Shown here: piece after piece, positions 33,001 through 39,000 of the stretch
How positions within the stretch are numbered: the stretch's first letter is position 1
Layout of the letters: every line of letters begins with the position of its first letter
Source of the DNA: an uncultured cyanobacterium
GTDB lineage: Bacteria; Cyanobacteriota; Cyanobacteriia; Pseudanabaenales; Pseudanabaenaceae
Assembly (NCBI GenBank): GCA_963703315.1
Contig: OY969811.1
Location: forward strand, 800,001-864,000
Direction of reading: 5' to 3'
Length of the DNA: 64,000 nucleotides
Program-made: the position numbers

Positions 33001-36000
33001 TTCTCGCGCTTTGGTACGGGCGTGTTTCAGAAGACGCGATACCATTTGAGAATCAATTTTGTCACCACTTTTTTCAATGGTGTCGATCGCTAATAAAATT
33101 GCCGTGAAGGGATTGCGTAAATCATGGGCAAGCATTCCCAAGACACGATCTTTAAAGCGAATTTGCTCCTCGATTTCAGCTTTTTCCTGTGAAAGTCGAA
33201 ATACATCATCCGCGAGGCGAGCCACCTCATTCATATATTCAATATTTTGAGAAAGTTCGGGAGGATGGTTTGTGGATTGATCTAATACTTGCTGTTTCCA
33301 TGTATCCCAAGAACTTTCTAGCTGCTTAATGATATTTTTTCCCGCAATTGTCTGTCTTGGTAAAGGCGATAATTTGAGGAGTGCGGGTGACATGACCACC
33401 TTAAATAGCTCTGCAAGTTGGGGCTGACTGGCAACATTGATGATTTGCAATTCCGAGCGACAATTATTTTCTTGTTGCAAAAACTCCTCTACTTCCTTGA
33501 CGAGTTCTTTTGCCTTGGGGCGATCGTCAATAAATAGTAAAAGTTGGAGGGTTGATTCAGGTAATGTTGGAATAGTCCTCATTGACTTTCGGACTCACAA
33601 CGGATTTTAAGACATTCTTAATAATTATATTATTGTTCTCATGGTTTTACCTCAACAGCGATGGCAGATTTCCGCACCACAGCCAAATTTATCGGCAAAG
33701 ATCGCTAATGTTACGGGACTTTCGCCCATAATCGCGCAGGTTTTACTAAATCGCGGTATTAATACCCCTGAAGCCGCTAAGGTTTTTCTTGATCCCGAAC
33801 TGGAAGATCTGCCTGATCCCAAACAGGAATTTCCTGATTTAATTGCGAGTATCGATCGCATTGAGCAAGCTATAAAAAACGGCGATCGCATTACAATCTG
33901 TGGTGACTATGATGTTGACGGCATGACTAGTACCGCTTTGTTAATTCGGACTTTGCGACTATTGGGTGGCAATGTGGAATATGAAATTCCGAGTCGGATG
34001 ACGGAGGGCTATGGAATTAATGCGCGGATCGTACAGGATTGTCACGATCGCGATGTCAGACTAATTATTACTGTGGACAATGGCATTGCGGCTTATGAGG
34101 CGATCGCCTTAGCCAAATCCTTAAATATTTCTGTAATTGTTACCGATCACCACGAAGTTCCCGAAGACCCCAGCAAAATTCCACCCGCCACCGCAATCCT
34201 CAATCCTAAATATCAAGTTGATCCTGATTCACCCTACGCGGCGATCGCTGGGGTTGGTGTTGCCTATGTGTTGGCGTTGGAATTAAGCGATCGCTTTGGC
34301 AAACGCACCGAGTTAGAAAATCCGTTATTAGAATTATTTACCCTCGGTACAATTGCCGATCTTGCCTCCTTAACAGGCATCAATCGCCGCCTTGTCAAAA
34401 AAGGTTTACGCTTACTTTCGCAATCTAAAGTTATTGGCATCATTGCCCTGATTAATGAAACAGGAATTGCCAAAGATAAACAAACTGGTTTGAAACCTGA
34501 AGCGATCGGTTTTGGTTTGGGACCAAGAATTAATGCGATCGGGCGGATTGGTAATCCGCAAGTAATTATTGATCTGTTGACCTGTGAGGATATGGGGCAG
34601 GCGATCGCCTTAGCCCAAGAATGTGAAGCTACTAATCGCAAGCGTCAAGATCTGTGCAAAGAGATCGAACAAGAGGCGATCGCCTATATGTCAAAGCTCA
34701 AATCAGAGGGTTTTGATATTACTCAAGAACGAGTTTTAGTAATAGTTGATCGGGAGGTGCAGGATACTCTCTATCCTGCTCCCAAGGGAAACAAAGAAAT
34801 GGCGTAGCTATTTCTTTGTTTGAAAACCCTTACTGGGTTTGGTTTTCAATTCACAAACATTGTGGTCACACTTTTGTGAATTGGTATTATAAAGTTTAAG
34901 TTAGGTAAAGTCATTATGAACACATTACTCAAACCAGCCTCAAACCAAATAGACACATGGATTAATGCTCCTTGGTCAGAATTTGTAGCGATCTCCGATT
35001 CAACCGATAGCGACAAACGCAAAAGCTACTATTACAAACAACAGATGAGATTTGAGGATATGTCCACAGGTTCCGATCACGCTAACGATCACGCATTAAT
35101 TCTATTTGCCATCTCCTTTTATGCCGCCACAAAGCAAATACCCATGACTGCCAAAGATGGCTGCTCCTATCGCCAAAGCGGAAAAACTGAATTTCAGCCC
35201 GATGTCTCCTATTACATTGGTGACAATGCCGATGCGATCGCTTGGGGAACGCGCATCATTGACCTCGATCAATATCCCTTACCCGATCTCGTCATTGAAA
35301 TATCTGACACCACCTTCAACGATGACCTCGGCACAAAACGCCTGCAATACGAAGAATTAGGCATCAAAGAATATTGGATCGTCAATGTCCAAACTATGAA
35401 AATCTATGCCTTTGCGATCGCCCCCGATGGCAGCAGCCATCATATTCGCCAATCCTTAGTGCTATCAGGATTAAAACTCGAAATCTTAGAACAAGTTCTC
35501 GAACGTAGTCGCCAAGAAAATCAATCAACCGTCACCGCATGGCTAATGAAGCAATTCTAACGAGCGCTAAAGATTGAGAAGTTTGCCAGTTTAGAAATAT
35601 GCAACTTAAGTTAGAAGCAAATGGAAATACAGTCAGCGAATTTTAGTTTTTTGCGCGAGCATGATCCACAATTGGTAAACCTTGCTGCCAGAGCTGAACA
35701 GTATTTACATAGCGACAGTAATACCTGCATCATCAAACTGCGGCAATTTGCCGAGCGTCTTGCCCAGCACATCGCCAACAATACAGGGCATTATCAAGCA
35801 GAAGATGAAGCACAGCTAGATTTGCTAAGACGACTTAAAGCAGAAGGTGTCATTTCTCGTGAAGTCGCTGAACTTTTCCATAGCATTCGCATCGGAGGCA
35901 ATCATGCCGCCCATAAAGGCAAAGATGACAGCCGCCAAGCCCTTACTCTCCTCGAAAATGCACATGAGTTAGGCAACTGGTTTCATCACGAATTTGGTAA

Positions 36001-39000
36001 TGACAGAAATTTTAGGGCAGGGGTATTCGTGCCACCTGCTCCGCCCATCGATGCTGAAATGGAGAGACTGAAAAGGGATGCCGAACAATCTCGCCGAGAT
36101 GCCGAAGAAAAAGAGATTGCTCTGAAAATAGCCGAAGCAGAAAAGCAACGATTGGAAAAAATATTGCGCGATTTGGATGCCGAACAATCTCGCCGAGATG
36201 CCGAAGAAAAAGAGATCGCCCTGAAAATAGCTGAAGCACAAGCCCGTCAAGCCGAAGTAGAAAAGCAACGATTAGAAGACATAGCGAGAGAAAAGGAAAA
36301 GCAAAGAATAGAAGAGAATATTACCAATCAAATTGATACACATCCACAAACTGCGGATATCCCCAATCAACTACAAATTGACACTAAAAATATCGATCCC
36401 GATGAAGATCTAACTGGTCAAGTTAGCGATCCAAGTCGAGAAATTGCTCCTGTTGCCAAAGAGGAAACAGCCCTCACCCCCATAGAGAGCAGTAAGAAAG
36501 AAAAGAGTAAGAAATCGGGTTGGCATCATGGGGTGATTGGGATTGTTGCTTCGCGTCTAGTGGAACGTTACGGCGCACCCGTATTTATTGGCAGTTATGA
36601 AGATGCCCATGATGATGATTCTGACCAAGTTGCCACTGTGCGCTTCTCAGTGCGGGGAATTCCAGAATTTCATGTTTTCAACGCCCTTGAATATGAACCG
36701 ATTAAAACTATTCGCAACAAAGGTGGCGGACATAAAGCGGCGGGTGGTTTTACTCTGCCTGCGGAGAATCTGGAAAAGCTGCGAGATGGATTAAGGGAAT
36801 TTGCCGATCGCGAAAATATTCTCCCTAGTCACATCATGCCTCTAGTCAATGTCGATGTTCGTGTCGATCTCAGTGATATCTCCATGACACTTCTGCAACA
36901 ATGCGATCGCCTGCAACCCTGCGGACTTGGTAATTCTGATCCTGTGTTCTATAGCGAAAATGTGCGCGTCATTTCCCAACAAACTCGCGGTAAGGATAAA
37001 GTCAAACATCTTTCTCTAGAACTGGATACAGGCAATGGCAAAATCAAAGCGATCGCATGGCGATGGGGAGAATATTGTCCTGTCCCTGATCATATAGATA
37101 TTGCTTACAAGTTGCGTGCGAATCAATGGCAAGATACAACTTCTGTAGAATTGGAAATAGTTGGTATTCGTGAAGCAGGTAATCTCATGGAAGATGCTAC
37201 AAGTTCGCCGAAACAGATTCAACTGCAATATAAACCTGCGCCCCTAATTAGCAAGGTTCCCCAATGGCAAAAACTCAGTGAAGCCACAAGACCTTTACCT
37301 CGTCCATTATTACTATATGGCTGCGATCGCCCTGCCGATAAGTTCCAAGGTGATGTCGATTGCGATCGCCCGAAACGAGATCGTAATTATGAAGCAGTCG
37401 TCCTATGGACTTTGCCACCATCATTCACACATCTGCAATGGCTAATCGCTACTGCCCAACCTGACTATATCTATCTTGGTTCTCATATTCCATCAGTTCC
37501 TTCCATTGAGCAATTTCGCGCCCAAGTTCAATCTCTTGATTTAGAGAATATCGAAAAATTAAATCTATTAGATATCTCGCAGCAATGGTGGATTTCACCT
37601 AGTGCGATCATTGCTGCCCTAAGAGAAAGAGGTTATCTCTGCGATTTCCCCAATACTTTACCTCTTGAAGGAGAATTACTGAGAATGCAAAAGTGGTACA
37701 GCATCGCTATCAATAAACTTGCTAAGATTCTTGCTGATCAACAATAGCGGCGCTAAGTGGTAATTCCGCAAGCATCAATGAGGTTTATTGAAGCGATCAG
37801 TTTTTATAATGACTTGTGTTTCCCAACAGTCAGTAAACTAGAAGCAGTAATCTAAAATTTGGGAGACAGCGATCGTGACAAATAGTAAGCCCCGCGATGT
37901 ACAGGTAATTTATATTGCTGACGAAACCTTTGCCCTGCGATCGCGTAGTTGGAATCGGTTACGCTTTGAAATTGAGTATGCTCTGGAAAAAGGAACTACG
38001 GCGAACTCATTCTTAATCCAAGGCAATTTGCAAGCAATAATCGATCCACCTGGAGGAACTTTCACCGAAATTTATTTAGATGAATTACGCAAACGCATCA
38101 ATATTCTTGATATTAGTTATGTGATTCTCGGTCATGTCAACCAAAACCGTATTGAAACACTGAAGGCTTTACTAGAGATTAATAATCGCCTTACCTTTGT
38201 CTGTACGAATCCAGGGGCGATCGCCTTGCGCCAAAATCTAGAGGAAGAATTTGGTGATAATCTCAAAATTCAAGTCGTGCGTGGTGAAGAAGTCCTTGAT
38301 CTTGGGAAAGGACATATTCTCAAATTTATTCCCACTTCTACGCCGCGTCATCCTGATGAGCTTTGTACCTATGACACCAAGACTCAAGTTTTATATACTG
38401 ATAAATTCTTTGGCGCTCATGTCTGCGGTGATCAAGTATTTGATGAAGGCTGGAGCCAATTATTGGGCGATCGCCGCTATTACTTTGACAGCACTATGGC
38501 AAACCAAGTCCGTCAAGTAGAAGCTGCCCTCGATAAGATTACCGATATGCCTGTTAGCTTTTATGCCCCAGGACATGGACCAATGTTGCGTCATGGCTTG
38601 CATGAATTGGTAAATCTTTATCGTCAATGGAGCGAAGCCCAAAAACAACAAAATATTTCAGTGGCGTTGCTATTTGCTTCTGCATACGGCAATACGACCA
38701 CGATCGCCAATGCCTTGGCAAGGGGAATTACAAAGGCAGGGGTTGCGGTTGAGTTGATTAACTGCGAGAGTGCGGAACCTGAAGAAATCAAAGCCGCGAT
38801 CGAAAAATCATCAGGATTTTTAATTGGTTCACCGACCCTAGGCGGACATTTACCCACCCAAGTACAAACGGCTTTGGGGATCGTTCTATCGACAGCAACT
38901 AAAAGCTATCAAGCGGGTGTCTTTGGCTCATACGGCTGGAGTGGTGAAGCCGTTGATATTATTGCTGGCAAACTCAAGGATTCAGGCTATACCCTTGCCT

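Follow-up and report, generated by a model that had tools for sequence, protein, structure and literature searches.

How a conserved exonuclease gene comes to exist as two open reading frames with a nuclease gene between them, and whether the two products still make one enzyme, is the question raised by the recJ locus of an uncultured cyanobacterium of the Pseudanabaenaceae. The window analyzed here (64,000 nucleotides of contig OY969811.1) does contain the three ORFs described in the first-pass annotation, including the Uma2-family gene between the halves: a DHH protein of 388 aa, the Uma2 protein of 214 aa, and a protein of 708 aa with DUF4145, DHHA1, and RecJ_OB (Table 1). Two hairpin repeats had also been placed between the halves; there is a single copy of ~100 bp (34789–34890), which forms three hairpins on folding (z −4.3) and has about 80 matches across the genome. 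The 18-aa tail of the N half terminates within this repeat, and repeats of other kinds occupy its position in some split alleles. A promoter and terminator scan of the locus gave no signal above shuffles.

Table 1. Features of the split recJ locus, in window positions.
Feature	Position	Strand	Remarks
recJ N half	33641..34807	+	388 aa; OB-packing N-terminal segment, DHH catalytic domain, linker helix, DHHA1 strand β1
HIP1 site GCGATCGC, closest to junction on left	34676..34683	.	in 15/17 split and 23/30 intact alleles
DHHA1 strand β1, ERVLVIVDR	34727..34753	+	final RecJ element of N half; from AF2 and complex models
Left junction, EVQDTLY(P)	34754..34788	+	common to 17/17 split alleles; presumably a degenerate remnant of the loop palindrome
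Hairpin repeat	34789..34890	.	one ~100-bp dispersed copy; supplies the N-half stop codon
Uma2-family PD-(D/E)XK nuclease gene	34916..35560	+	214 aa; subfamily found ahead of hsdR where the genus has type I restriction loci
hsdR 5′ part (DUF4145, coiled coil, decayed HSDR_N lead-in), fused in frame to RecJ-C	35621..36430	+	
C-half ORF (hsdR part and RecJ-C)	35621..37747	+	708 aa; DUF4145, DHHA1, RecJ_OB
Right junction	36470..36520	+	GC-rich loop palindrome remnant and lysine-rich loop; homologous to variable loop of intact alleles
Remaining DHHA1 and linker to OB fold	36521..36902	+	one haplotype moving together with insert; clade of 17
First HIP1 site past junction	36903..36910	.	in 17/17 split and 26/29 intact alleles; split-specific residues end just 5′ of it
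RecJ OB fold and C-terminal domain	36911..37747	+	tracks host lineage

The break had been assigned to the inter-domain linker, but the N half includes both the linker helix and strand β1 of DHHA1. The break lies inside DHHA1, 3′ of β1, within a loop whose length varies widely. The Pfam DHHA1 match on the C half begins at model position 10 of 102, and an intact allele, as modeled by AF2, has a helix (318–355), a strand (366–369), and a low-confidence loop ahead of the WHHG helix; RecJ domain limits have been published (PMC4846377). N-half motifs GDYDVDG, TVDNG, TDHH, and GPRINA are retained in all 17 split alleles known (GTIAD[LM] in 16), while the C half contains DHHA1 motifs VI–VII and the OB fold, with all four tested motifs in 17/17. 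Scored separately against the RecJ model TIGR00644, the halves reach 325 and 128 bits against a cut-off of 396.9, neither polypeptide qualifying alone. The break would mark a natural split point for RecJ.

The insert consists of the Uma2 gene and the first ~245 codons of the type I restriction subunit gene hsdR. An extension with DUF4145 and a coiled coil does precede RecJ-C, as first described, but it is a truncated HsdR rather than a new functional domain: residues 4–237 of this ORF match PRK11448 positions 2–238 (E 3e-45), residues 1–270 align with HsdR 1–249 of genome G003 at 55% identity, and DUF4145 is the HsdR N-terminus. Relative to the PRK11448 family of HsdR, presumably of EcoKI type, the N-terminal match and the Uma2-hsdR gene order are retained, but the insert stops at the start of HSDR_N and lacks the nuclease and helicase domains. 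Unlike type I restriction loci, linked inserts carry neither hsdM nor hsdS, and the window holds HsdR 1–249 only, short of the HsdR, HsdM, and HsdS that make up a type I restriction-modification system. The assignment to a type I restriction source is based on G003, G012, G022, and G042, where Uma2 lies directly ahead of a full hsdR. Whether every split allele carries Uma2 had been left open; the gene is intact between the halves in 14/17, broken in G009 and G011, and, in G003, placed ahead of a full hsdR; there a complete HsdR, HsdM, and HsdS set lies 3′ of the N half, and the C half is located elsewhere. All 14 linked inserts have an intact Uma2 gene, and 3 of them have lost the hsdR part. 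Counted over all split alleles, the DUF4145 part is kept in 12/17 and lost in 5/17, and is dispensable on that account; dN/dS is 0.15 for Uma2 and 0.41 for the hsdR part. The HsdR remnant is likely a tolerated passenger that supplies a translation start. Comparison of Uma2 with the PDB returned weak matches only. Within the hsdR part, a duplication of 99-bp period spans 36076–36241.

The split recurs in the genus, as the first-pass annotation had reported, in 17 of 48 Pseudanabaena genomes; with this one set aside, the count is 16/47 rather than 15/47. The junction is unbroken in 31/48, and all 20 matches from other genera cross it in one frame. One intact-junction allele, that of G046, is frameshifted. 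An assembly artefact is ruled out for the split itself by the near-complete genomes G000 and G007 (single contigs) and G015 (8 contigs), and both half frames are open in 17/17 split alleles, with no stop or frameshift. In three draft assemblies (G003, G009, and G011) the halves are unlinked yet intact, and in two of these a decayed Uma2 lies beside the N half. Such cases could be misjoins at Uma2 copies; the G011 arrangement recurs at 99.98% identity in L247, which may be the same data. Taken at face value, the unlinked halves would make gene fission traceable stage by stage.

The junction common to all 17 split alleles, together with the single clade that they form for C codons 0–135 (SH-aLRT 95), indicates that the split originated once. 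Outside this region a one-clade constraint for the split alleles is rejected, both for the distal N (p-AU 0.0012) and the distal C part (1e-90). The rpoB+rpoC1 tree likewise rejects a split clade (5e-109; 12 changes, with 16 split among 41 genomes), and the outer recJ parts and rpoB-rpoC1 demand 12–14 changes of split state. Because the inner clade conflicts with the outer recJ and rpo trees, a ~2.2-kb block passes between species by recombination. The split G016 and the intact G022 differ by 2.5% in rpo, 8% in outer recJ, and 19% beside the insert; for the two split genomes G004 and G020 the differences are 13% (rpo) and 0.5% (Uma2). The clade, the tree-conflict tests, and these pair contrasts bear out the earlier suggestion that the split recurs through recombination. 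Repeated independent insertion is ruled out by the common junction and single clade. An ancestral split with many re-fusions is also ruled out: other genera are intact, and neither DTLY nor the EP-K haplotype occurs in any of 55 one-piece proteins. The diagnostic EP-K is present in 26/26 stand-alone C halves and 0/55 one-piece proteins, and DTLY was found in no intact allele. Tree-conflict counts in recJ, taken as a gauge of whether split alleles move more than intact ones, are not above those in equal-sized rpo windows (42/97 splits in conflict) and favor neither answer. The low absolute synonymous divergence of the transferred block is insufficient as proof, because one rpoB control window is equally low; the claim rests on the tree tests and pair contrasts. 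Horizontal spread with co-conversion of flanks, as for homing genes, is found here, and drift, a benefit from Uma2, and altered RecJ activity are candidate causes.

The block appears often to end at the nearest HIP1 sites. The left site (34676..34683) is its left end in several alleles, not all, and in G015 and G035 the left ends lie nearer to the junction. For the right end, estimates lie within codons 141–162 in only 4/17 alleles, whose intact relatives are the closest, and spread over 157 to 259 in the other 13. Tract ends unrelated to the insert displayed no clear general excess of HIP1 (1/13 versus 1.0 expected, and 6/53 versus 3.3). The right-hand HIP1 coincides with a conserved domain boundary. 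In laboratory strains, matching HIP1 sites promote integration or transformation (10.1101/2024.09.10.611283; PMC4390886; PMC13756078). The natural tract ends here similarly adjoin shared HIP1 sites, but at one locus, in natural interspecies transfer, and with no clear excess at other ends of the same genes. The function of HIP1 is a long-standing question, and a dated, sharply bounded interspecies transfer with ends at HIP1 would provide a natural substrate for testing its role. A literature search, with most subscription journals outside its reach, found no paper joining HIP1 and recombination breakpoints.

The halves probably reassemble into one RecJ enzyme. The two-piece protein first proposed is backed by purifying selection, rebuilt start codons, unlinked halves, and a complex model; the activity itself is predicted. 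Across C codons 0–115, dN/dS is 0.10 at dS 0.67 among split alleles and 0.08 among intact alleles. Only this proximal C block tests the split state, because dN/dS of the N half and distal C mostly reflects time spent as intact alleles. The C-half start codon has been rebuilt in 5/17 split alleles. The complex model of the halves scored 0.82 (best of three controls, 0.00), with at least 85% of contacts shared between runs and a partner pLDDT of at least 83, and pairs β1 with C-half residues 38–42. The mark that it passes is attained by 116/157 solved complexes and 2/215 mismatched pairs, and the pass may reflect likeness only, because solved RecJ structures exist. Fold prediction without an alignment gave a pLDDT of 35. 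A second recJ paralog is present in 48/48 genomes and could mask loss of the split RecJ. The idea that the C half has co-adapted to being split was rejected, as 6/17 diagnostic residues fall in the predicted interface versus 48/128 positions overall, with no enrichment. An A to V/I change at 36863 is fixed, a lead only. RNA runs, available as contigs only and covering 5–7% of words, are uninformative on expression or its level; their contigs link N to Uma2 and Uma2 to C, with no joint at the junction. The single joint that spans the insert (X8) is read as another strain's intact allele, because the N side of its contig does not match the split contig which that run also contains.

We therefore favor, as the likely explanation, a RecJ split by insertion into two subunits, with the allele spreading between species by recombination. 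Part of a type I restriction locus, comprising Uma2 and hsdR sequence, would have recombined, once, into a repeat-bearing surface loop past β1, whereby the N half acquired a stop and the C half the start and 5′ end of hsdR. The separately translated halves would reassemble through contacts already in one-piece RecJ, namely β1 along the DHHA1 sheet edge, the linker helix against the WHHG helix, and residues 2–38 against the OB-proximal strand, restoring the DHH/DHHA1 groove of a 5′→3′ ssDNA exonuclease. The ~2.2-kb block, composed of the insert, up to ~26 codons on its left, and ~127 on its right, has since replaced intact alleles in many lineages, a pattern that the trees show. The likeliest route may be natural transformation and homologous recombination, with ends favored at HIP1.

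A reading that departs from this one only in the cause of spread is homing, in which Uma2 cuts intact recJ and break repair copies the insert. We disfavor it as unlikely, even though Uma2 is the sole gene intact in every linked insert, evolves under the constraint given above, and sits between asymmetric carried flanks. The insert is also never seen with an intact-type DHHA1, as predicted for a cut near C codons 127–140, and cleavage at a distance from the insert is normal for free-standing homing enzymes (PMC2988022). A homing enzyme should be absent where a cleavable empty allele is kept, but G012, G022, and G042 combine intact recJ with a Uma2 that is 82–90% identical to the window's and would cut its own host; on the tree these copies nest among those of the inserts. 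The loop that received the insert varies too much to be a target, and the Uma2 family is plentiful in cyanobacteria and has been proposed as a solo toxin (PMC2701414). The literature search found no paper on Uma2 homing and no demonstrated activity for the family. Slightly less likely still is the extension of this idea to a new type of chromosomal gene drive, in which Uma2 cuts recJ, foreign split DNA repairs it, exchanges are fixed at flanking HIP1, and the host tolerates the result through a two-chain RecJ; if true, homing would become a function of Uma2, and HIP1 would serve in nature as an exchange point.

That each half is kept for a task of its own, the N half acting as a free DHH phosphoesterase and the C half as a DHHA1-OB protein that binds ssDNA, mostly with a DUF4145 effector that we take to be HEPN-like, is improbable. 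The halves can be unlinked, and the DUF4145 part is kept in 12/17 alleles at a dN/dS of 0.41; its loss from the five others speaks against this reading, as do a C half without β1 or the N-terminal segment belonging to the OB domain, and the presence of both halves in 17/17 split genomes. The RecJ substrate groove and nucleotide pocket, moreover, require both DHH and DHHA1 (PMC4846377). A pseudogene that decays slowly under cover of the second recJ, and spreads because loss of this RecJ is neutral or raises transformation, is very improbable. The ubiquitous paralog and the frameshift in G046 fit it, as does the benefit to transformation of losing a recJ paralog (recJcy) in S. elongatus (PMC10653904), a gene that is likely the counterpart of the other paralog here. 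All split alleles are nevertheless free of stops and frameshifts, dN/dS within their clade is low, and start codons were rebuilt in five. Removal of the insert at the DNA, RNA, or protein level, by excision, splicing, or trans-splicing, is scarcely credible. Remnants of the same palindrome flank the insert on both sides, but in-frame identity between its ends is just 5–13 bp in the 14 linked alleles, the locus has no Rfam match or intein domain, none of the 55 one-piece proteins is a rejoined DTLY allele, three genomes have unlinked halves, and RNA-library contigs bridge both gene pairs unjoined.

The insertion-split RecJ most resembles the genes-in-pieces ribonucleotide reductase of phage Aeh1, nrdA-a/mobE/nrdA-b (PMC3045599); other cases include the split phage gene 43 and gene 60/39 (PMC2988022), and insertion-split enzymes that work without splicing are mainly phage examples (PMC2988022, PMC3045599). 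In both systems a nuclease gene lies between the halves of a DNA-metabolism gene cut within a domain, and both halves have short added tails. As in genes in pieces, recJ is continuous in relatives (31/48 in the genus, 20/20 in other genera) and cut by a nuclease-bearing insert, with no sign of intron, intein, or excision, an absence of evidence. Protein association without splicing restores function in Aeh1 and is predicted to do so for RecJ. Unlike the Aeh1 case, split RecJ is found on cyanobacterial chromosomes, where a third of the species sampled from one genus have it; its nuclease, Uma2, derives from a type I restriction locus and is not an HNH homing enzyme; its tails are variable and were rebuilt, whereas those of Aeh1 are essential; and the halves can be unlinked. 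No split RecJ was found in the literature listings searched, which left out most subscription journals. Like the free-standing homing genes segF and segG of T4, the nuclease-bearing insert spreads across lineages with asymmetric flanks, but three genomes have a near-identical Uma2 alongside intact alleles, and the ends of the tracts lie close to HIP1. Compared with canonical RecJ (DHH-DHHA1-OB), all domains and tested motifs are present, spread over two ORFs, and the intact allele is predicted to fold as S. aureus 8Y30 and D. radiodurans 5F55. The differences are that two polypeptides are made, that the second has a dispensable extension of up to ~300 aa derived from HsdR, and that the loop past β1 is long and variable.

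The split recJ of this cyanobacterium is a real feature. The three consecutive ORFs described in the first-pass annotation lie where it placed them, all on the same strand (see table), and by alignment the first covers residues 1–336 of S. aureus RecJ and the third residues 348–557. A one-piece recJ paralog is present elsewhere in the same genome and was matched in 48/48 genomes of the genus; the presence of two recJ genes is reported as frequent in cyanobacteria (PMC5101192). The split recJ scores above the one-piece paralog with the PRK11070 model, and we infer that it is the E. 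coli-like member of the pair. In S. elongatus, loss of the cyanobacterial recJ paralog is reported to favor transformation (PMC10653904). No report of a split RecJ was among the papers listed by literature searches.

Features of the split recJ locus and its upstream neighbors (positions within the window)
Feature	Position	Strand	Description
Further Uma2 gene	31532–32386		1.3 kb upstream; C-terminal AESAEQR repeat
KaiB-domain histidine kinase	32470–33582	-	Divergent from recJ, 58 bp between; presumably SasA-like
recJ N half	33641–34807	+	388 aa; Pfam DHH
Uma2 gene	34916–35560	+	214 aa; Pfam Uma2
hsdR part + RecJ C half	35621–37747	+	708 aa; Pfam DUF4145, DHHA1, RecJ_OB

A tblastn search with the insert's Uma2 did not match the further Uma2 gene.

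The recJ locus was read in each of the 48 Pseudanabaena genomes; it is split in 17 and continuous across the junction in 31, a set that includes one allele with an upstream frameshift (G046) and two that reach contig ends (G024 and G045). The frameshift (G046:C3:83916-85044) lies near codon 237, with the junction continuous, and represents an error or a pseudogene. Outside the genus, all 20 matches from 23 genomes were continuous, and 80 metagenome loci comprised 70 continuous, 7 split, and 3 outside the classifying pattern, with all 7 split loci at least 81% identical to the protein described here. The N half ends in EVQDTLY(P) in 17/17 split alleles. The N half, Uma2 gene, and C half are contiguous in 14/17, with inserts of 940–2212 bp; in G003, G009, and G011 the C half lies on a separate contig amid unrelated genes. 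The gene 3′ of recJ is not constant among split genomes. The intact recJ of G021 (locus L148) displays WDHG in place of WHHG, and two residues inserted in it resemble the split haplotype; it may have received a small patch from another allele.

The break had initially been assigned to the inter-domain linker, a placement that was not borne out: the cut falls inside DHHA1. For RecJ of D. radiodurans, residues 296–327 are reported as the linker helix and residues 328–424 as DHHA1 (strand order 12354), with residues 1–48 forming part of the OB domain (PMC4846377). Alignment of the C half begins at RecJ residue 341, and its match to the Pfam DHHA1 model begins only at position 10. Modeled with AF2 (pLDDT 92), an intact allele displays the RecJ fold, with a helix (318–355), a strand (366–369), a poorly ordered loop, and the WHHG helix in succession. 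This loop comprises ∼4 residues in most other cyanobacteria and 13–67 in intact Pseudanabaena alleles, where it often consists of a GC-rich palindrome read as PSPSP-GEG. This genome contains 62 matches to the palindrome, which is presumably one of the small dispersed repeats known from cyanobacteria. Because this variable, often palindrome-built loop sits at the cut, recJ appears to have been severed at a surface loop already tolerant of insertions. The same palindrome occurs in four hsdR loci (L226, L227, L228, and L238), and in the hsdR of G022 it is translated in frame as a PSPK-GRGGG loop.

Residues 4–237 of the third ORF match PRK11448, a type I restriction subunit model (E 3e-45), and over residues 1–270 the alignment to a full-length HsdR (1104 aa) reaches 55%. 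A Uma2 gene of the insert's subfamily lies immediately 5′ of full hsdR in G003, G012, G022, and G042, with hsdM and hsdS downstream of hsdR in G003. The HsdR match and this gene order in four genomes identify the insert as a piece of a Uma2-hsdR locus. Its HsdR portion, judged by its distribution, is dispensable: it is retained in 12/17 split alleles and cut to 17 residues in G019 and G035, while the C half of G003, G009, and G029 has a new ATG start close to HsdR residue 236; the C frame retained a start in every case of loss. Elsewhere, G000:C1:3495003-3495830 (L168:5002-5837; L239) contains a second hsdR 5′ end that stops after 64 codons, resumes in another frame, and adjoins an intact hsdS; this is a type I restriction locus in decay, of the kind from which the insert came. 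Two additional small ORFs, which we take to resemble a DUF433/DUF5615-type toxin–antitoxin pair, separate Uma2 from the hsdR part in G007 (L136), suggesting that the split site can collect more genes. At G003:C114:40000-60400 (L147, L174), downstream of the recJ N half come a 644-aa gene whose end is presumably GGDEF-like, then Uma2, full hsdR, hsdM, small genes, and hsdS, an arrangement probably produced by recombination of the insert with a whole restriction locus.

Sequence and modeling together make a two-subunit RecJ fairly probable. All 17 split alleles keep both frames open and retain the core motifs, and in G009 and G011 the Uma2 gene next to the N half has decayed, whereas both recJ halves have not. 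The proximal C block is the fair test of selection, since its divergence postdates the split, and its dN/dS among split alleles is 0.10 (dS 0.67) versus 0.08 among intact alleles; the values for the N half (0.059 versus 0.066) mostly record history before the split. The N half modeled in complex with C residues 283–525 scored 0.82 against 0.00 for the best of three controls, exceeding a mark attained by 116/157 solved complexes and 2/215 mismatched pairs. At least 85% of contacts were common to runs, with partner pLDDT of at least 83, and the contacts match those within one-piece RecJ: β1 (365–369) with 38–42, the linker helix with 27–31, and 8–11 with 127–130. Because RecJ structures have already been solved, the model shows that the halves can fit together without implying binding. 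Rejoining into one piece is unlikely: the split locus gave no Rfam match and no Pfam intein domain, in-frame identity between the insert ends is at most 13 bp, unlinked halves in some genomes speak against it, and RNA-library contigs of related strains (contigs only) span the junctions unspliced. The nearest parallel is nrdA of phage Aeh1, which mobE is reported to divide into two chains whose assembly gives a fully active enzyme (PMC3045599). As far as sequence and model tests go, split recJ would work alike, but it is chromosomal, its insert derives from a restriction locus, and its tails are variable.

A single origin followed by spread between species is well supported by the alleles' sequences. 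Over the 135 aligned codons that follow the junction, 17/17 split alleles fall into a single clade with SH-aLRT 95. Trees built from the outer part of the N half or of the C half require 14 changes of the split state and reject a single split clade (p-AU 0.0012 and 1e-90, respectively). An rpoB+rpoC1 (rpo) tree of 41/48 genomes, 16 of them split (seven were not fetched or had no usable gene), takes 12 changes and likewise rejects a single clade (p-AU 5e-109). G016 (split) and G022 (intact) differ by 2.5% in rpo, 8% in outer recJ, and 19% in both flanks of the insert, and G019 and G010 by 3.6%, 5–6%, and 20–21%. G004 and G020, both split, differ by 13% in rpo, 0% over the last 75 bases of the N half, and 0.5% in Uma2. 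Synonymous divergence is lower in Uma2 than in the N half in 105/105 nonindependent pairs; a slow rpoB window is as low as Uma2. Among database proteins (of 88 ids scanned, 3 fragments and 4 lacking the anchor motif were set aside), a two-residue insertion occurs in 26/26 stand-alone C halves and 0/55 one-piece proteins, and DTLY was found in none of these 55; with both absent from one-piece proteins, there is no sign of re-fusion. G031 carries the intact allele closest to the split clade, and 4/5 of its rpo group are split, which hints at this group as the lineage of origin.

Homing by Uma2 as the cause of spread is a minority reading. It would account for the retention of Uma2 in 14/14 linked inserts (dN/dS 0.15) and for the uneven flanks carried with the insert, and free-standing phage endonucleases are reported to behave in this manner (PMC2988022). 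However, the insert departs from a homing gene in one test: Uma2 copies 82–90% identical occur in three genomes with intact recJ and are interspersed on the tree with those of the inserts. The loop at the insertion point also varies too much to serve as a cleavage target. Proteins of the Uma2 family have been described as abundant and as likely to act as solo toxins (PMC2701414). One freshwater sequencing run (X8) contains both split and intact alleles, which gives them an opportunity for exchange. Intact alleles show no more tree conflict than rpo windows do, a comparison that does not separate drift from selection.

Exchange guided by HIP1, a short repeated cyanobacterial DNA site, has about an even chance of operating at split recJ, judging from the ends of the moving block. 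The last split-specific residue is at aligned codon 140, and the first HIP1 after the junction starts at codon 141 (36903) in 17/17 split and 26/29 intact alleles; the nearest on the left (34676) is present in 15/17 and 23/30. Of the near-identical split-split tracts, which are nonindependent, 8/18 on the right (1.0 expected) and 4/5 on the left (0.4 expected) terminate no more than 12 bases from a shared HIP1, with no clear excess at other tract ends (1/13; 6/53 versus 3.3 expected). Right change-points fall at codons 141–162 only in the four alleles with the closest intact relatives, those of the other 13 being spread over codons 157–259. In G015 and G035 the left switch is nearer the junction than the HIP1 site, and the right site coincides with a conserved domain boundary. 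HIP1 occurs once per 557 bp in this genome. In the laboratory, homologous HIP1 is reported to raise integration up to 7-fold, and methylated homologous HIP1 >100-fold (10.1101/2024.09.10.611283); its natural role is described as still an open question (PMC4390886, PMC13756078). HIP1-bounded exchange offers a testable lead. Unconnected with the insert, a mismatch-free tract at recJ C codons 307–340 is shared by the otherwise divergent alleles of G007 versus G025 and G042, both of its ends lying within 7 bases of a shared HIP1.
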